Assembly: GCF_006345805.1 (NCBI RefSeq)
Contig: NW_021835571.1
Span: 1 to 27,896, forward strand
DNA: 27,896 nucleotides
Origin: Octopus sinensis
Lineage: Eukaryota
Direction of reading: 5' to 3'
Below are positions 7,611 through 20,853 of the stretch, in pieces. The notes beneath the pieces were generated by a model. It saw only the letters and a list, made by a program, of their open reading frames with translations. It ran no database searches and was not told the DNA's origin. The first letter of the stretch is position 1, and every line of letters begins with the position of its first letter. The position numbers were made by a program, and so were the translations under genes.

Positions 7611-7678
7611 TTATGTTTGGCAACCTGAATTAGTTTCTCTACATGTTCATAACTTACCGGTTTCATTTATATACATAC

Positions 7679-7759
<81 letters not shown>

Positions 7760-7785
7760 CTTTATCTCTCTCTCTCTCTCTCTTT

Positions 7786-7925
<140 letters not shown>

Positions 7926-8209
7926 ATATATTATATATATATATATATATATAAGTTTAACAATTAAGGATAATCTCTAATAAGGGATCTTAACAAGAAA
8001 TTATCGGGTAGCTAGCGTGAAAACCTCATAAAAGAAAAGAATCCGAAAATATTTTTTTCTTTTGAACAAATTAATTATATCTATATTGTATAAAGGGCAT
8101 TATTACACATAAATGCCTCACACTAGGAGGGACAAAGTCATTACTACCAAAAATTATACTATCATACCCAAATGCAGTTTTTCAAAGCAAGACATTAAAA
8201 ATGAATTAT

Positions 8210-8265
8210 GTTCTGTATCACCGTGATTTCACATACAACTTGCGTCTAATGATCGTCAGCAGAAC
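8210..8265 (-). ncRNA. Type I hammerhead ribozyme (first of 25 minus-strand copies)
   Basis: Minus strand reads GUUCUG-CUGACGA-U CAU UA GAC GCAA GUU GU AUG U-GAAA-UCA CGG UGA-UA^CAGAAC. It has a 6-bp stem I, the CUGANGA core, stem II capped by a GNRA loop, GAAA, stem III and an AUA cleavage triplet. The predicted cut is between 8216 and 8215. Confidence 0.88.
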
Positions 8266-11200
8266 TGATTCTGAATACATCATAAATAAACAACCTTATG
8301 TAGCGAAGACGAACAGACAACTGTTCACTCCGGCCAAGCACATGGAATGTTTATAATCATATATCCGGTAAATGGCGGGCTTTTTACGAACTGCATGTCG
8401 GGTAATGAAAAGTATTTCGGAATAAGTTTAACAATTAAGGATAATCTCTTAATAAGGGATCTTAACAAGAAATTATCGGGTAGCTAGCGTGAAAACCTCA
8501 TAAAGAAAAGAATCCGAAAATAATTTTTTTCTTTTGAACAAATTAATTATATCTATATTGTATAAAGGGCATTATTACACATAAATGCCTCACACTAGGA
8601 GGGACAAAGTCATTACTACCAAAAATTATACTAATCATACCCAAATGCAGTTTTTCAAAGCAAGACATTTAAAATGAATTATGTTCTGTATCACCGTGAT
8701 TTCACATACAACTTGCGTCTAATGATCGTCAGCAGAACTGATTCTGAATACATCATAAATAACCAACCTTATGTAGCGAAGACGAACAGACAACTGTTCA
8801 CTCCGGCCAAGCACATGGAATGTTTATAATCATATATCCGGTAAATGGCGGGCTTTTTACGAACTGCATGTCGGGTAATGAAAAGTATTTCGGAATAAGT
8901 TTACAATTAAGGATAATCTCTTAATAAGGGATCTTAACAAGAAATTATCGGGTAGCTAGCGTGAAAACCTCATAAAAGAAAAGAATCCGAAAATATTTTT
9001 TTCTTTTGAACAAATAATTATATCTATATGTATAAAGGGCATTATTACACATAAATGCCTCACACTAGGAGGGACAAAGTCATTACTACCAAAATTATAC
9101 TAATCATACCCAAATGCAGTTTTTCAAAGCAAGACATTTAAAAATGAATTATGTTCTGTATCACCGTGATTTCACATACAACTTGCGTCTAATGATCGTC
9201 AGCAGAACTGATTCTGAATACATCATAAATAACCAACCTTATGTAGCGAAGACGAACAGACAACTGTTCACTCCGGCCAAGCACATGGAATGTTTATAAA
9301 TCATATATCCGGTAAATGGCGGGCTTTTTACGAACTGCATGTCGGGTAATGAAAAGTATTTCGGAATAAGTTAACAATTAAGGATAATCTCTTAATAAGG
9401 GATCTTAACAAGAAATTATCGGGTAGCTAGCGTGAAAACCTCATAAAAGAAAAGAATCCGAAAATAATTTTTTCTTTTGAACAAATTAATTATATCTATA
9501 TTGTATAAAGGGCATTATTACACATAAATGCCTCACACTAGGAGGGACAAAGTCATTACTACCAAAATTATACTAATCATACCAAATGCAGTTTTTTCAA
9601 AGCAAGACATTTAAAAATGAATTATGTTCTGTATCACCGTGATTTCACATACAACTTGCGTCTAATGATCGTCAGCAGAACTGATTCTGAATACATCATA
9701 AATAAACCAACCTTATGTAGCGAAGACGAACAGACAACTGTTCACTCCGGCCAAGCACATGGAATGTTTATAAATCATATATCCGGTAAATGGCGGGCTT
9801 TTTACGAACTGCATGTCGGGTAATGAAAAGTATTTCGGAATAAGTTTAACAATTAAGGATAATCTCTTAATAAGGGATCTTAACAAGAATTATCGGGTAG
9901 CTAGCGTGAAAACCTCATAAAAGAAAAGAATCCGAAAATAATTTTTTTCTTTTGAACAAATTAATTATATCTATATTGTATAAAGGGCATTATTACACAT
10001 AAATGCCTCACACTAGGAGGGACAAAGTCATTACTACCAAAATTATACTAATCATACCCAAATGCAGTTTTTCAAAGCAAGACATTTAAAAATGAATTAT
10101 GTTCTGTATCACCGTGATTTCACATACAACTTGCGTCTAATGATCGTCAGCAGAACTGATTCTGAATACATCATAAATAAACCAACCTTATGTAGCGAAG
10201 ACGAACAGACAACTGTTCACTCCGGCCAAGCACATGGAATGTTTATAAATCATATATCCGGTAAATGGCGGGCTTTTTACGAACTGCATGTCGGGTAATG
10301 AAAAGTATTTCGGAATAAGTTTAACAATTAAGGATAATCTCTTAATAAGGGATCTTAACAAGAAATTATCGGGTAGCTAGCGTGAAAACCTCATAAAAGA
10401 AAAGAATCCGAAAATAATTTTTTCTTTTGAACAAATTAATTATATCTATATTGTATAAAGGGCATTATTACACATAAATGCCTCACACTAGGAGGGACAA
10501 AGTCATTACTACCAAAATTATACTAATCATACCCAAATGCAGTTTTTCAAAGCAAGACATTTAAAAATGAATTATGTTCTGTATCACCGTGATTTCACAT
10601 ACAACTTGCGTCTAATGATCGTCAGCAGAACTGATTCTGAATACATCATAAATAAACCAACCTTATGTAGCGAAGACGAACAGACAACTGTTCACTCCGG
10701 CCAAGCACATGGAATGTTTATAAATCATATATCCGGTAAATGGCGGGCTTTTTACGAACTGCATGTCGGGTAATGAAAAGTATTTCGGAATAAGTTTAAC
10801 AATTAAGGATAATCTCTTAATAAGGGATCTTAACAAGAAATTATCGGGTAGCTAGCGTGAAAACCTCATAAAAGAAAAGAATCCGAAAATAATTTTTTTC
10901 TTTGAACAAATTAATTATATCTATATTGTATAGAGGGCATTATTACACATAAATGCCTCACACTAGGAGGGACAAAGTCATTACTACCAAAAATTATACT
11001 ATCATACCCAAATGCAGTTTTTCAAAGCAAGACATTTAAAAATGAATTATGTTCTGTATCACCGTGATTTCACATACAACTTGCGTCTAATGATCGTCAG
11101 CAGAACTGATTCTGAATACATCATAAATAAACCAACCTTATGTAGCGAAGACGAACAGACAACTGTTCACTCCGGCCAAGCACATGGAATGTTTATAAAT

Positions 11201-14200
11201 CATATATCCGGTAAATGGCGGGCTTTTTACGAACTGCATGTCGGGTAATGAAAAGTATTTCGGAATAAGTTTAACAATTAAGGATAATCTCTTAATAAGG
11301 GATCTTAACAAGAAATTATCGGGTAGCTAGCGTGAAAACCTCATAAAGAAAAGAATCCGAAAATAATTTTTTCTTTTGAACAAATTAATTATATCTATAT
11401 TGTATAAAGGGCATTATTACACATAAATGCCTCACACTAGGAGGGACAAAGTCATTACTACAAAAATTATACTAATCATACCCAAATGCAGTTTTTCAAA
11501 GCAAGACATTTAAAAATGAATTATGTTCTGTATCACCGTGATTTCACATACAACTTGCGTCTAATGATCGTCAGCAGAACTGATTCTGAATACATCATAA
11601 ATAAACCAACCTTATGTAGCGAAGACGAACAGACAACTGTTCACTCCGGCCAAGCACATGGAATGTTTATAATCATATATCCGGTAAATGGCGGGCTTTT
11701 TACGAACTGCATGTCGGGTAATGAAAAGTATTTCGGAATAAGTTTAACAATTAAGGATAATCTCTTAATAAGGGATCTTAACAAGAATTATCGGGTAGCT
11801 AGCGTGAAAACCTCATAAAAGAAAAGAATCCGAAAATAATTTTTTTCTTTTGAACAAATTAATTATATCTATATTGTATAAAGGGCATTATTACACATAA
11901 ATGCCTCACACTAGGAGGGACAAAGTCATTACTACAAAAATTATACTAATCATACCCAAATGCAGTTTTTCAAAGCAAGACATTTAAAAATGAATTATGT
12001 CTGTATCACCGTGATTTCACATACAACTTGCGTCTAATGATCGTCAGCAGAACTGATTCTGAATACATCATAAATAAACCAACCTTATGTAGCGAAGACG
12101 AACAGACAACTGTTCACTCCGGCCAAGCACATGGAATGTTTATAAATCATATATCCGGTAAATGGCGGGCTTTTTACGAACTGCATGTCGGGTAATGAAA
12201 AGTATTTCGGAATAAGTTTAACAATTAAGGATAATCTCTTAATAAGGGATCTTAACAAGAAATTATCGGGTAGCTAGCGTGAAAACCTCATAAAAGAAAA
12301 GAATCCGAAAATAATTTTTTTCTTTTGAACAATTAATTATATCTATATTGTATAAAGGGCATTATTACACATAATGCCTCACACTAGGAGGGACAAAGTC
12401 ATTACTACAAAAATTATACTAATCATACCAAATGCAGTTTTTCAAAGCAAGACATTTAAAAATGAATTATGTCTGTATCACCGTGATTTCACATACAACT
12501 TGCGTCTAATGATCGTCAGCAGAACTGATTCTGAATACATCATAAATAAACCAACCTTATGTAGCGAAGACGAACAGACAACTGTTCACTCCGGCCAAGC
12601 ACATGGAATGTTTATAAATCATATATCCGGTAAATGGCGGGCTTTTTACGAACTGCATGTCGGGTAATGAAAAGTATTTCGGAATAAGTTTAACAATTAA
12701 GGATAATCTCTTAATAAGGGATCTTAACAAGAAATTATCGGGTAGCTAGCGTGAAAACCTCATAAAAGAAAAGAATCCGAAAATAATTTTTTTCTTTTGA
12801 ACAAATTAATTATATCTATATTGTATAAGGGCATTATTACACATAAATGCCTCACACTAGGAGGGACAAAGTCATTACTACCAAAATTATACTAATCATA
12901 CCCAAATGCAGTTTTTCAAAGCAAGACATTTAAAAATGAATTATGTTCTGTATCACCGTGATTTCACATACAACTTGCGTCTAATGATCGTCAGCAGAAC
13001 TGATTCTGAATACATCATAAATAAACCAACCTTATGTAGCGAAGACGAACAGACAACTGTTCACTCCGGCCAAGCACATGGAATGTTTATAAATCATATA
13101 TCCGGTAAATGGCGGCTTTTTACGAACTGCATGTCGGGTAATGAAAAGTATTTCGGAATAAGTTTAACAATTAAGGATAATCTCTTAATAAGGGATCTTA
13201 ACAAGAAATTATCGGGTAGCTAGCGTGAAAACCTCATAAAGAAAAGAATCCGAAAATAATTTTTTTCTTTTGAACAATTAATTATATCTATATTGTATAA
13301 AGGGCATTATTACACATAAATGCCTCACACTAGGAGGGACAAAGTCATTACTACCAAAAATTATACTAATCATACCCAAATGCAGTTTTTCAAAGCAAGA
13401 CATTTAAAAATGAATTATGTTCTGTATCACCGTGATTTCACATACAACTTGCGTCTAATGATCGTCAGCAGAACTGATTCTGAATACATCATAAATAAAC
13501 CAACCTTATGTAGCGAAGACGAACAGACAACTGTTCACTCCGGCCAAGCACATGGAATGTTTATAAATCATATATCCGGTAAATGGCGGGCTTTTTACGA
13601 ACTGCATGTCGGGTAATGAAAAGTATTTCGGAATAAGTTTAACAATTAAGGATAATCTCTTAATAAGGGATCTTAACAAGAATTATCGGGTAGCTAGCGT
13701 GAAAACCTCATAAAAGAAAAGAATCCGAAAATATTTTTTTCTTTTGAACAAATTAATTATATCTATATTGTATAAGGGCATTATTACACATAAATGCCTC
13801 ACACTAGGAGGGACAAAGTCATTACTACCAAAAATTATACTAATCATACCCAAATGCAGTTTTTCAAAGCAAGACATTTAAAAATGAATTATGTTCTGTA
13901 TCACCGTGATTTCACATACAACTTGCGTCTAATGATCGTCAGCAGAACTGATTCTGAATACATCATAAATAAACCAACCTATGTAGCGAAGACGAACAGA
14001 CAACTGTTCACTCCGGCCAAGCACATGGAATGTTTATAAATCATATATCCGGTAAATGGCGGGCTTTTTACGAACTGCATGTCGGGTAATGAAAAGTATT
14101 TCGGAATAAGTTTAACAATTAAGGATAATCTCTTAATAAGGGATCTTAACAAGAAATTATCGGGTAGCTAGCGTGAAAACCTCATAAAAGAAAAGAATCC

Positions 14201-17200
14201 GAAAATAATTTTTTTCTTTTGAACAATTAATTATATCTATATTGTATAAAGGCATTATTACACATAAATGCCTCACACTAGGAGGGACAAAGTCATTACT
14301 ACCAAAAATTATACTAATCATACCCAAATGCAGTTTTTCAAAGCAAGACATTTAAAAAATGAATTATGTTCTGTATCACCGTGATTTCACATACAACTTG
14401 CGTCTAATGATCGTCAGCAGAACTGATTCTGAATACATCATAAATAAACCAACCTTATGTAGCGAAGACGAACAGACAACTGTTCACTCCGGCCAAGCAC
14501 ATGGAATGTTTATAAATCATATATCCGGTAAATGGCGGGCTTTTTACGAACTGCATGTCGGGTAATGAAAAGTATTTCGGAATAAGTTTAACAATTAAGG
14601 ATAATCTCTTAATAAGGGATCTTAACAAGAAATTATCGGGTAGCTAGCGTGAAAACCTCATAAAAGAAAAGAATCCGAAAATAATTTTTTCTTTTGAACA
14701 AATTAATTATATCTATATTGTATAAAGGGCATTATTACACATAATGCCTCACACTAGGAGGGACAAAGTCATTACTACAAAAATTATACTAATCATACCC
14801 AATGCAGTTTTTTCAAAGCAAGACATTTAAAAATGAATTATGTTCTGTATCACCGTGATTTCACATACAACTTGCGTCTAATGATCGTCAGCAGAACTGA
14901 TTCTGAATACATCATAAATAAACCAACCTTATGTAGCGAAGACGAACAGACAACTGTTCACTCCGGCCAAGCACATGGAATGTTTATAATCATATATCCG
15001 GTAAATGGCGGGCTTTTTACGAACTGCATGTCGGGTAATGAAAAGTATTTCGGAATAAGTTTAACAATTAAGGATAATCTCTTAATAAGGGATCTTAACA
15101 AGAAATTATCGGGTAGCTAGCGTGAAAACCTCATAAAAGAAAAGAATCCGAAAATAATTTTTTTCTTTTGAACAAATTAATTATATCTATATTGTATAAA
15201 GGGCATTATTACACATAAATGCCTCACACTAGGAGGGACAAAGTCATTACTACCAAAAATTATACTAATCATACCCAAATGCAGTTTTTCAAAGCAAGAC
15301 ATTTAAAAATGAATTATGTTCTGTATCACCGTGATTTCACATACAACTTGCGTCTAATGATCGTCAGCAGAACTGATTCTGAATACATCATAAATAAACC
15401 AACCTTATGTAGCGAAGACGAACAGACAACTGTTCACTCCGGCCAAGCACATGGAATGTTTATAAATCATATATCCGGTAAATGGCGGGCTTTTTACGAA
15501 CTGCATGTCGGGTAATGAAAAGTATTTCGGAATAAGTTTAACAATTAAGGATAATCTCTTAATAAGAAATTATCGGGTAGCTAGCGTGAAAACCTCATAA
15601 AAGAAAAGAATCCGAAAATAATTTTTTTCTTTTGAACAAATTAATTATATCTATATTGTATAAAGGGCATTATTACACATAAATGCCTCACACTAGGAGG
15701 GACAAAGTCATTACTACCAAAATTATACTAATCATACCCAAATGCAGTTTTTCAAAGCAAGACATTTAAAATGAATTATGTTCTGTATCACCGTGATTTC
15801 ACATACAACTTGCGTCTAATGATCGTCAGCAGAACTGATTCTGAATACATCATAAATAAACCAACCTTATGTAGCGAAGACGAACAGACAACTGTTCACT
15901 CCGGCCAAGCACATGGAATGTTTATAAATCATATATCCGGTAAATGGCGGGCTTTTTACGAACTGCATGTCGGGTAATGAAAAGTATTTCGGAATAAGTT
16001 TAACAATTAAGGATAATCTCTTAATAGGGATCTTAACAAGAAATTATCGGGTAGCTAGCGTGAAAACCTCATAAAAGAAAAGAATCCGAAAATAATTTTT
16101 TCTTTTGAACAAATTAATTATATCTATATTGTATAAAGGGCATTATTACACATAAATGCCTCACACTAGGAGGGACAAAGTCATTACTACCAAAATTATA
16201 CTAATCATACCCAAATGCAGTTTTTCAAAGCAAGACATTTAAAAATGAATATGTTCTGTATCACCGTGATTTCACATACAACTTGCGTCTAATGATCGTC
16301 AGCAGAACTGATTCTGAATACATCATAAATAACCAACCTTATGTAGCGAAGACGAACAGACAACTGTTCACTCCGGCCAAGCACATGGAATGTTTATAAA
16401 TCATATATCGGTAAATGGCGGGCTTTTTACGAACTGCATGTCGGGTAATGAAAAGTATTTCGGAATAAGTTTAACAATTAAGGATAATCTCTTAATAAGG
16501 GATCTTAACAAGAAATTATCGGGTAGCTAGCGTGAAAACCTCATAAAAGAAAAGAATCCGAAAATAATTTTTTTCTTTTGAACAAATTAATTATATCTAT
16601 ATTGTATAAAGGGCATTATTACACATAAATGCCTCACACTAGGAGGGACAAAGTCATTACTACCAAAAATTATACTAATCATACCCAAATGCAGTTTTTC
16701 AAAGCAAGACATTTAAAAATGAATTATGTCTGTATCACCGTGATTTCACATACAACTTGCGTCTAATGATCGTCAGCAGAACTGATTCTGAATACATCAT
16801 AAATAAACCAACCTTATGTAGCGAAGACGAACAGACAACTGTTCACTCCGGCCAAGCACATGGAATGTTTATAAATCATATATCCGGTAAATGGCGGGCT
16901 TTTTACGAACTGCATGTCGGGTAATGAAAAGTATTTCGGAATAAGTTAACAATTAAGGATAATCTCTTAATAAGGGATCTTAACAAGAATTATCGGGTAG
17001 CTAGCGTGAAAACCTCATAAAAGAAAAGAATCCGAAAATAATTTTTTTCTTTTGAACAAATTAATTATATCTATATTGTATAAGGGCATTATTACACATA
17101 ATGCCTCACACTAGGAGGGACAAAGTCATTACTACCAAAAATTATACTAATCATACCCAAATGCAGTTTTTCAAAGCAAGACATTTAAAATGAATTATGT

Positions 17201-19571
17201 TCTGTATCACCGTGATTTCACATACAACTTGCGTCTAATGATCGTCAGCAGAACTGATTCTGAATACATCATAAATAAACCAACCTTATGTAGCGAAGAC
17301 GAACAGACAACTGTTCACTCCGGCCAAGCACATGGAATGTTTATAAATCATATATCCGGTAAATGGCGGCTTTTTACGAACTGCATGTCGGGTAATGAAA
17401 AGTATTTCGGAATAAGTTTAACAATTAAGGATAATCTCTTAATAAGGGATCTTAACAAGAAATTATCGGGTAGCTAGCGTGAAAACCTCATAAAAGAAAA
17501 GAATCCGAAAATAATTTTTTTCTTTTGAACAAATTAATTATATCTATATTGTATAAAGGGCATTATTACACATAAATGCCTCACACTAGGAGGGACAAAG
17601 TCATTACTACCAAAAATTATACTAATCATACCCAAATGCAGTTTTTCAAAGCAAGACATTTAAAAATGAATTATGTTCTGTATCACCGTGATTTCACATA
17701 CAACTTGCGTCTAATGATCGTCAGCAGAACTGATTCTGAATACATCATAAATAACCAACCTTATGTAGCGAAGACGAACAGACAACTGTTCACTCCGGCC
17801 AAGCACATGGAATGTTTATAAATCATATATCCGGTAAATGGCGGGCTTTTTACGAACTGCATGTCGGGTAATGAAAAGTATTTCGGAATAAGTTTAACAA
17901 TTAAGGATAATCTCTTAATAAGGGATCTTAACAAGAATTATCGGGTAGCTAGCGTGAAAACCTCATAAAAGAAAAGAATCCGAAAATAATTTTTTCTTTT
18001 GAACAAATTAATTATATCTATATTGTATAAAGGGCATTATTACACATAAATGCCTCACACTAGGAGGGACAAAGTCATTACTACCAAAAATTATACTAAT
18101 CATACCCAAATGCAGTTTTTCAAAGCAAGACATTTAAAAATGAATTATGTTCTGTATCACCGTGATTTCACATACAACTTGCGTCTAATGATCGTCAGCA
18201 GAACTGATTCTGAATACATCATAAATAAACCAACCTTATGTAGCGAAGACGAACAGACAACTGTTCACTCCGGCCAAGCACATGGAATGTTTATAAATCA
18301 TATATCCGGTAAATGGCGGGCTTTTTACGAACTGCATGTCGGGTAATGAAAAGTATTTCGGAATAAGTTTAACAATTAAGGATAATCTCTTAATAAGGGA
18401 TCTTAACAAGAATTATCGGGTAGCTAGCGTGAAAACCTCATAAAAGAAAAGAATCCGAAAATAATTTTTTTCTTTGAACAAATTAATTATATCTATATTG
18501 TATAAAGGGCATTATTACACATAAATGCCTCACACTAGGAGGGACAAAGTCATTACTACCAAAATTATACTAATCATACCCAATGCAGTTTTTTCAAAGC
18601 AAGACATTTAAAAAATGAATTATGTTCTGTATCACCGTGATTTCACATACAACTTGCGTCTAATGATCGTCAGCAGAACTGATTCTGAATACATCATAAA
18701 TAAACCAACCTATGTAGCGAAGACGAACAGACAACTGTTCACTCCGGCCAAGCACATGGAATGTTTATAAATCATATATCCGGTAAATGGCGGGCTTTTT
18801 ACGAACTGCATGTCGGGTAATGAAAAGTATTTCGGAATAAGTTTAACAATTAAGGATAATCTCTTAATAAGGGATCTTAACAAGAATTATCGGGTAGCTA
18901 GCGTGAAAACCTCATAAAAGAAAAGAATCCGAAAATAATTTTTTTCTTTTGAACAAATTAATTATATCTATATTGTATAAAGGGCATTATTACACATAAA
19001 TGCCTCACACTAGGAGGGACAAAGTCATTACTACCAAAAATTATACTAATCATACCCAAATGCAGTTTTTCAAAGCAAGACATTTAAAAATGAATTATGT
19101 TCTGTATCACCGTGATTTCACATACAACTTGCGTCTAATGATCGTCAGCAGAACTGATTCTGAATACATCATAAATAACCAACCTTATGTAGCGAAGACG
19201 AACAGACAACTGTTCACTCGGCCAAGCACATGGAATGTTTATAAATCATATATCCGGTAAATGGCGGGCTTTTTACGAACTGCATGTCGGGTAATGAAAA
19301 GTATTTCGGAATAAGTTTAACAATTAAGGATAATCTCTTAATAAGGGATCTTAACAAGAAATTATCGGGTAGCTAGCGTGAAAACCTCATAAAGAAAAGA
19401 ATCCGAAAATAATTTTTTTCTTTTGAACAAATAATTATATCTATATTGTATAAAGGGCATTATTACACATAAATGCCTCACACTAGGAGGGACAAAGTCA
19501 TTACTACCAAAAATTATACTAATCATACCCAAATGCAGTTTTTCAAAGCAAGACATTTAAAAATGAATTAT

Positions 19572-19627
19572 GTTCTGTATCACCGTGATTTCACATACAA
19601 CTTGCGTCTAATGATCGTCAGCAGAAC
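19572..19627 (-). ncRNA. Type I hammerhead ribozyme (last minus-strand copy)
   Basis: Identical to the 8210-8265 motif. Confidence 0.85.
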
Positions 19628-19921
19628 TGATTCTGAATACATCATAAATAACCAACCTTATGTAGCGAAGACGAACAGACAACTGTTCACTCCGGCCAAG
19701 CACATGGAATGTTTATAAATCATATATCCGGTAAATGGCGGGCTTTTTACGAACTGCATGTCGGGTAATGAAAAGTATTTCGGAATAAGTTTAACAATTA
19801 AGGATAATCTCTTAATAAGGGATCTTAACAAGAAATTATCGGGTAGCTAGCGTGAAAACCTCATAAAAGAAAAGAATCCGAAAATAATTTTTTTCTTTTG
19901 AACAAATTAATTATATCTATA

Positions 19922-20494
19922 TTTGAAAAACTGCATTTGGGTATGATTAGTATAATTTTTGGTAGTAATGACTTTGTCCCTCCTAGTGTGAGGCATTTAT
20001 GTGTAATAATGCCCTTTATACAATATAGATATAATTAATTTGTTCAAAAGAAAAAAATTATTTTCGGATTCTTTTCTTTTATGAGGTTTTCACGCTAGCT
20101 ACCGATAATTTCTTGTTAAGATCCCTTATTAAGAGATTATCCTTAATTGTTAAACTTATTCCGAAATACTTTTCATTACCCGACATGCAGTTCGTAAAAA
20201 GCCCGCCATTTACCGGATATATGATTTATAAACATTCCATGTGCTTGGCCGGAGTGAACAGTTGTCTGTTCGTCTTCGCTACATAAGGTTGGTTTATTTA
20301 TGATGTATTCAGAATCAGTTCTGCTGACGATCATTAGACGCAGTTGTATGTGAAATCACGGTGATACAGAACATAATTCATTTTTAAATGTCTTGCTTTG
20401 AAAAACTGCATTTGGGTATGATTAGTATAATTTTTGGTAGTAATGACTTTGTCCCTCCTAGTGTGAGGCATTTATGTGTAATAATGCCCTTTAT

Positions 20495-20502
<8 letters not shown>
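19922..20502 (+). repeat. Inverted 1.2-unit arm of the 475-bp repeat
   Basis: Reverse complement of the array unit, starting tttgaaaaactgcatttggg and ending gccctttatacaatata, then (TA)n. Confidence 0.96.
20318..20372 (+). ncRNA. Type I hammerhead ribozyme, plus-strand copy in the inverted arm
   Basis: GTTCTG CTGACGA TCATTAGACGCAGTTGTATGT GAAA TCACGGTGA TA CAGAAC. One A is missing from loop II, which could be real or a consensus error. Confidence 0.82.
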
Positions 20503-20526
<24 letters not shown>

Positions 20527-20582
20527 CGTTTAAATATTTGTTGTGCAAGATTTTTTATGTAAAGTCGTGTGTTGAAACAGAT

Positions 20583-20853
20583 ATTGTTATATTTCGGAAT
20601 GGTCATATTCCCAGTTTAGCCAATAAAAACACACGTACTATATATTTGGCGTTATTTTGCTTCAGTGTTATAAGAAAGAAGAAAACAAAGGACCACTGAT
20701 GCGGTCACAGGAGTGTGACGAAAGAACTCTGGCCGAAATAAGATTAAGATTAATGTAAAAAATAAATAACACTGAAGCAAATAACACCAAATATATAGTG
20801 CGTGTGTTTTTATTGGCTAAACTGGCAAAATGACCATTCCGAAATATAACAAT
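20583..20853. mobile_element. Penelope-like terminal remnant: ~88-bp inverted arms (20583-20671 / 20766-20853) enclosing a decayed hammerhead (20690-20734, +)
   Basis: Arms are reverse complements with a few mismatches. The spacer contains GGACCA-CTGATGC-G-GTCACA GGAG TGTGAC-GAAA-G AA C-TC-TGGCC. The insert is flanked by (TA)n. Confidence 0.6.

Follow-up and report, generated by a model that had tools for sequence, protein, structure and literature searches.

A hammerhead repeat of Octopus sinensis is inserted as two head-to-head arms between TA repeats

Architecture of the locus

The window, that is, the whole stretch of 27,896 nucleotides analysed here (contig NW_021835571.1 of Octopus sinensis), contains a tandem array at 7951–19923 and an inverted piece at 19922–20502, both lying between two (TA)n runs (Table 1). 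TRF assigns the array a period of 474 with 25.3 copies; the window units of about 474 nt are shorter than the 477-nt unit because of homopolymer indels. Unit coordinates are numbered from the predicted hammerhead cut site. On the outside the A arm ends at unit 269 (site A; RNA-sense 3' end), and on the inside at 131; the B arm spans unit 31 via the cut site to 136, or to 142 with the bases shared with the flank, its RNA-sense 3' end being site B. At position 137 the window carries T, as in the target, where the template has G. Each array unit holds one hammerhead core word (25 in all), 22 of the full motifs are exact, and the two arms together show 1 minor substitution in 12,141 aligned bases.

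Table 1. Features of the two-armed insertion in the window
Feature	Position	Strand	Basis
Left (TA)n flank, target side of A arm	7668..7953	.	TRF and sequence
A arm, tandem array of the 477-nt unit (25 copies)	7951..19923	-	Exact-match extension, TRF, unit coordinates
Hammerhead motif (type I) of the array's final full unit, cut predicted between 19578 and 19577	19572..19627	-	Pattern
Head-to-head inner junction, TT common to both arms (2 nt)	19922..19923	.	Exact-match extension
B arm, 1.2 units	19922..20502	+	Exact-match extension, unit coordinates
B-arm hammerhead motif, predicted cut after 20366	20318..20372	+	Pattern
Site B, best TA-like word of the unit (132–142)	20498..20508	+	TA scoring of unit
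Right (TA)n flank	20498..20526	.	TRF

Exact-match extension bears out the end of the array at ...tatctatatt (19923) and the 2-nt tt microhomology at 19922–19923, both proposed in a first-pass annotation of the locus. The 6-nt overlap described there between the stop of the array and the outer end of the inverted arm is real and corresponds to unit 131–136, and neither outer end (unit 269 and 136–142) coincides with the ribozyme cut site, as had been stated. The further claim that both 3' ends are UA-rich and merge into (TA)n holds in part: both outer ends do merge, but the end at 7951 is not UA-rich, with a TA match of 3 nt. By chance, a single locus would show a register to within 6 nt in about 2.7% of cases and an overlap of at least 2 nt in 18.5%; the window locus alone therefore cannot carry the argument.

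Among the assembled contigs (as distinct from individual reads) of four DNA-type runs, none bridges 19922/19923; run X19 (0.26 share), with its single contig, was left out of the analysis. Two flank searches for an empty allele of the window locus, with 40 candidates scored in each, returned repeat-family matches only. Directly to the right of the TA flank, at 20527–20853, lies a MITE-like repeat with inverted ends, for which there were 512 search candidates.

The repeat unit and its predicted ribozyme

In better-assembled copies (213 monomers) the unit is 477 nt long and non-coding, with a GC content of about 0.33 and a longest stop-free stretch of 98 codons. A type I hammerhead motif lies on the minus strand: stem I has 6 bp, a GNRA loop caps stem II, and the palindromic stem III closes with a loop of 1 nt. 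The core, stems I and III and the AUA cut triplet are recognised by pattern; the base of stem II is U-U, the usual pair being G-C. The intact motif has 1,056 exact matches in the genome and none in controls. Across 103–117 loci the core is invariant and N7 occurs in four states, at a low overall divergence of 1.6%. No Rfam model matched at its gathering score, nor any hammerhead model on 20200–20520 at E up to 10, and the ribozyme folded alone did not recover the hammerhead (z +1.4). The whole monomer folds with z = -7.4 against 60 shuffles and has a predicted hairpin at unit 214–251 (probability 0.99). A stem joining sites A and B, seen in a local fold, had zero probability in the circular ensemble and was rejected.

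By the features tested, the 477-nt element is a metazoan non-LTR retrozyme, its self-cleavage being a prediction. It shares with the retrozymes of this class, in the parts of the sources covered, a low-GC non-coding tandem unit, one type I hammerhead motif in each unit and a well-folded monomer (PMC7229834, bioRxiv 10.64898/2026.07.22.740005). Eight of nine frog retrozymes gave no cleavage in vitro (bioRxiv 10.64898/2026.07.22.740005). Three runs guessed to be RNA yield contigs that span the unit and continue across the cut site, a pattern in which circle and tandem look the same. Over window positions 19450–19921, runs X3, X7 and X14 show dense T>C and A>G clusters, with 32 differences in 225 nt; judged from the contigs, these resemble A-to-I hyper-editing of double-stranded RNA, affecting both strands in the way that head-to-head arms would predict.

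A family of two-armed insertions

A genome search by whole-unit similarity, in which 29 of 883 candidates were scored, gave 29 further loci, or 30 with the window. Two head-to-head arms, with their RNA 3' ends pointing outward into TA-type repeats, make up 27 of these 30. With site A taken as unit 260–270 and site B as 136–146, 22 loci are A/B, four are A with another end, one has a B end and a contig edge, and none is A/A or B/B. A further 120 loci, chosen for having an A or B end, brought the pool to 150 (80 of the 84 remaining loci were taken, the four left out being B-end loci on contig C4). Two arms are present in 122 of the 150: 111 A/B, 7 A with another end, 4 B with another end, and again no A/A or B/B; the other 28 have one arm only or a layout that is not settled. 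Picking by ends inflates the A/B share, but it would not hide A/A or B/B insertions.

Exact ends counted genome-wide gave 250 A ends and 301 B ends adjoining TA, with none in reversed controls. On contigs C1–C4, 44 of 80 A ends are paired with an outward B end within 20 kb; there are no outward A/A pairs, and no B/B pairs among 94 B ends. The sole inward A/A pair comes from locus L079 (5827–5896), where a second, short insertion (55 nt, with a site A end) lies in the TA flank of the first one. The 477-nt repeat is thus present as several hundred dispersed genomic insertions, given at least 250–301 insertion ends and the empty paralogues described below.

The arms vary widely in length. Both exceed two units in 20 of 60 loci, and among the 22 A/B loci free of selection bias one arm's length shows no correlation with the other's. 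B is over one unit longer than A in 15 of 112 loci, which contradicts the expectation of short inverted arms raised by the first reading.

The same layout occurs in a second, older hammerhead family, H2, which has a 479-nt monomer, about 90% identity and 3,939 search candidates (L145, L087, L095, L165–L194). In a sample drawn via the H2 A end, it was found in 14 of 32 loci, 11 of them with a TA-like B end and none A/A. Homology of H2 to the 477-nt unit was considered and rejected, the global score of 155 against 130 +/- 13 not being significant.

Other elements are found in and around these copies. In at least two loci (L078 4728–6435 and L080 3342–5041) the same insert, about 1.7 kb long, lies at unit 384/369–370 with a 15–16-nt duplication, and it borders a third locus (L262 near 3921). 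The insert has a frame of CCHC gag-like type without a Pfam hit and seems to be a second element that targets the 477-nt repeat. A further hammerhead-like motif family (L051 5014, L052 4740, L080 2670) flanks the insertion at C12:44.29 in inverted orientation, and this insertion appears to lie inside a different two-armed element, at its TA end.

TA target and start sites

Of 112 A ends, 97 are followed by a perfect TA run of at least 8 nt, as are 86 of 112 B ends, partly by selection. In five cases the insertion occupies the TA tract of a common host repeat, with intact repeat sequence on either side, and the repeat is continuous at empty paralogues. At L043 (C10:39.20) the insertion is at a bare TATA of the host repeat, whose flanks are joined by 4 nt in 43 of 54 paralogues. 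Genome-wide, the host repeat has 29,355 exact bare sites versus 12 with a TA run; of the ten of these 12 that were viewed, one is the L043 insertion itself, and a simple expansion within an otherwise intact repeat accounts for only one. The L043 insertion is bordered by about 10 TA units on one side and about 17 on the other. Because the site is bare in most paralogues, the TA flanks there were likely made at or after insertion, and this one empty-site case suggests that insertion itself can produce TA flanks. No TA has been added at the two loci situated in (TAGA)n and (TATATATG)n. With a single case on one side and two loci without added TA on the other, slippage of the target is as possible as RNA-templated addition. 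The proposal that a cut TA microsatellite served as target stands insofar as TA flanks are common in the family; a pre-existing run is not always needed, as L043 illustrates. Target-site duplications are unreadable in (TA)n; at L043, a 4-nt TATA is present on both sides, lengthened.

The two start sites differ in character. Site A (unit 260–270) matches TA over 3 nt at most and lies just 3' of the predicted hairpin at 214–251. The site B word (132–142) has the top TA score within the unit, and terminal B copies carry the base of the target at position 137 in 93 of 117 cases. We infer from this that site A is set by protein, and that pairing between the TA end and the unit's best UA word assists the start at site B. 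The distance between A and B, the 'tail', is 127 nt. Across the family, the A and B ends support the idea of internal start sites away from the ribozyme cut site. The circularly permuted UA-rich ends that the first-pass annotation expected on tabulating other copies did not appear: ends are fixed at two sites, and only B is TA-like.

Inner ends and the joint

The register match at the window had been read as a signature of twin priming. In the family, A-arm inner ends fall at 126–147 in 8 of 118 loci against 5.4 expected, and in a wider band in 11 against 10.4, so the match does not extend beyond chance. Nor are B-arm inner ends in excess in register with site A (2 of 54, 3.5 expected). A pile-up of inner ends at the cut site, the mark of a cleaved linear monomer, shows no clear excess either (5 of 118 and 8 of 115, against 4.2%).

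What the inner ends do share is their position relative to each other: the two lie within 20 nt in 42 of 111 loci, with 9.5 expected. In a comparison of short and long insertions (n = 112, site A widened by one base), this holds for 38 of 57 short ones (4.9 expected) and 4 of 55 long ones (4.7 expected). In this family, the two arms of a short insertion as a rule finish at the same point of the template; the window insertion belongs to the long, asymmetric class. Among the 42 symmetric joints, B reaches further in 21, equally far in 12 and less far in 9. An exact overlap of at least 2 nt is present at 47 of 70 insert-free joints, and at 29 of 43 when palindromic joints are set aside, versus 18.5% by chance. 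Inserts occur at 52 of 122 joints, many of them copied from nearby sequence. Such microhomology and inserts resemble the outcome of microhomology-mediated end joining.

One RNA template longer than a unit

Sister arms were compared in the 30 loci, out of the first 70, in which both arms span at least one unit. They are identical in 23 of the 30, with 21 distinct variants; the sister arm is strictly the nearest in 13, tied in 15 and farther in 2. Locus-specific changes run through all monomers of both arms, for example in 4/4 and 5/5, 6/6 and 5/5, or 10/10 and 7/7. A variant fixed in every monomer points to a single-monomer bottleneck, which a circle provides, a homogeneous uncleaved transcript being a less probable template. 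The window has the common variant, and this test is therefore uninformative for the window itself. The cut site is crossed by 80 of 118 A arms and 79 of 115 B arms, and the 274 crossings have a gap rate of 0.5% versus 1.2% elsewhere. The suggestion of a circular or uncleaved multimeric template is thus backed by the roughly two thirds of arms that cross the cut site, and that of a ribozyme-sense RNA primed from both sides of a TA target by the fixed sites and shared variants.

Candidate enzymes and related elements

The octopus genome carries intact RT+GIY-YIG frames, and three RT+GIY-YIG families were found. One copy, L164, is itself two-armed, with ends about 30–36 nt apart. Among 50 GIY-YIG loci (150 of 5,029 candidates scored), none shares sequence with the 477-nt unit. 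A young Penelope-type family (L145 2173–5873, L149) has a 479-codon frame upstream of a 781-codon RT+GIY-YIG frame and a (TA)n end; L145 also duplicates about 1.1 kb of its 3' flank.

Penelope-like elements are described as inserting at (TA)n with a copy that is inverted and 5'-truncated, and only one of their ends bears a tail (PMC8557442). The purified enzyme of an anole element cuts and extends both strands, its two internal start sites bound the tail, and a dimer is predicted; in vitro it used unprocessed RNA, cleavage not being needed for insertion, and its start sites show neither target homology nor a strand difference (PMC11167929). Retrozymes have been proposed to use circles and Penelope enzymes (PMC7229834, PMC4209133), a connection also drawn by phylogeny in a 2026 preprint that leans to local tandem-repeat amplification and leaves the mechanism open (bioRxiv 10.64898/2026.07.22.740005). 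The retrozyme route to new loci, like the inverted ends and one-sided tails of Penelope-like elements, is described there and in related work as an open question (bioRxiv 10.64898/2026.07.22.740005, PMC8557442, PMC11167929). The part of PMC13282606 covered does not mention ribozymes.

Compared with these descriptions, the octopus repeat resembles Penelope-like elements in its inverted 5'-truncated copy (122 of 150 loci), its tail at one end and its TA or AT-rich targets (PMC8557442), as well as in two internal start sites for reverse transcription 3' of a hammerhead with a palindromic stem III (PMC11167929, PMC4209133). It differs from them in having no ORF, arms of up to 25 units and a tail of 127 nt rather than 30–40, as far as the covered parts of these sources go. 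Unlike in the anole element, site B appears to be homology-guided, and each site is used once per insertion (PMC11167929). Its inverted arms, fixed start sites and microsatellite targets have no counterpart in the covered accounts of retrozymes, and PMC7229834 contains neither the word 'inverted' nor 'microsatellite'. In the openly available main texts searched, no description was found of retrozymes inserting as two arms that use a pair of fixed sites.

Mechanism and alternative explanations

What the loci show directly is a pair of outward arms, a single use of each of two fixed sites, one variant in both arms, seamless passage through the cut site, and microhomology or short inserts at the joint. 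Since the fixed A and B sites never combine as A/A or B/B and one variant fills both arms, RNA-templated, two-ended priming is supported. Of the first reading, then, the observation is confirmed and the RNA-templated priming from two ends is supported; the L1-type twin-priming geometry is not. Penelope-type two-site initiation appears to be a closer model of the layout than L1 5' inversion. Our preferred reading, to which we give a probability of roughly 60%, is that a retrozyme repeat was inserted as head-to-head arms between (TA)n, likely by a borrowed Penelope-type RT/GIY-YIG enzyme that started from both DNA ends on one and the same RNA, probably a circle made by the ribozyme.

On this reading, the enzyme would cut both strands at a TA site, and one RNA molecule, probably a ribozyme-made circle, would be reverse-transcribed from both DNA ends. 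The start at site A would be set by the protein, and that at site B by pairing of the TA end with the UA word. Two polymerases displacing each other's cDNA as they travel round the circle could generate multi-unit arms of unrelated lengths, as in the window, and polymerases stopping in the first round would halt at about the same template point. Host end joining would finally fuse both inner ends. More tentatively, a Penelope RT dimer might perform double rolling-circle reverse transcription on one ribozyme-made circle, with one subunit for each end and site; by first adding TA repeats in a telomerase-like manner, it would make insertions create the microsatellites that they seem to target.

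The same two-ended priming could have used a linear, uncleaved read-through transcript of an existing array, which we consider unlikely but worth serious attention. The seamless cut-site crossings fit linear and circular RNA alike, a shared RNA 5' end would explain why short insertions stop at a common point (the cut site is crossed in 15 of 36 of them), and the anole element does use unprocessed RNA in vitro (PMC11167929). A linear template would, however, need a single-monomer bottleneck to account for 21 variants that are each fixed across the monomers of a locus, as well as an uncleaved RNA of 25 units for the window, and it sits uneasily with a hammerhead core that is conserved while N7 drifts. 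Priming at A alone is a less probable route: the cDNA would fold back and copy itself as far as the TA word of site B, where the other target end would capture it. Fold-back accounts for the A/B asymmetry, the shared variants and the near-perfect short palindromes (12 of 42 symmetric joints are exact). It is disfavoured because in 38 of 112 loci the A arm is too short to have supplied the whole B arm, with a shortfall of over one unit in 15, and because at symmetric joints B reaches further in 21 and less far in only 9; later central deletions or loss of units would be needed to rescue it.

Very little weight falls on the remaining readings. In L1-type twin priming, first priming takes place on the 3' poly(A) tail, the second priming site adjoins the stop of the first cDNA, and a target-site duplication is made. 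L1 elements reportedly undergo 5' inversion by twin priming (Ostertag and Kazazian 2001). The octopus insertions are similar in that both break ends prime and give two head-to-head pieces with a microhomology joint, and the 6-nt overlap of the window is what a second primer annealing just upstream of a stalled first cDNA would leave. Unlike in L1, however, there is no poly(A) start, site A being internal, and no register of second primer with first stop in the family; the arms start at fixed sites, overlap, run through multiple rounds and often cover the same template over many units. L1-style twin priming (briefly described in PMC2246262) is contradicted as a rule for the family; it could hold for the window locus only, and overall we rate it very improbable. 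A DNA-level origin, in which monomers expanded by slippage or unequal crossover and template switching at fragile (TA)n produced the inversion, seems no likelier to us. Tandem arrays are homogeneous, (TA)n is self-complementary, and part of the 25 window copies could be later expansion. Such a process cannot, however, put the same two ends with fixed polarity at over a hundred unlinked sites, and at empty paralogues the host repeat is continuous across the insertion point. An assembly or chimeric-read artefact would fit an unplaced 27.9-kb contig with about 1% homopolymer indels and no bridging contig, yet it is hardly credible given that the two flanks differ, that the A/B layout recurs on chromosome-scale contigs and that contigs of run X1 hold three other head-to-head joints of the unit.

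Implications for the family

A young family with hundreds of copies offers mapped predictions for the insertion reaction: two start sites, a single use of each per insertion, one template molecule, a shared first-round stop point and, possibly, addition of TA. If our preferred reading is true, some 'satellite' arrays arise at full length in a single event, and their head-to-head arms would be ready sources of double-stranded RNA.
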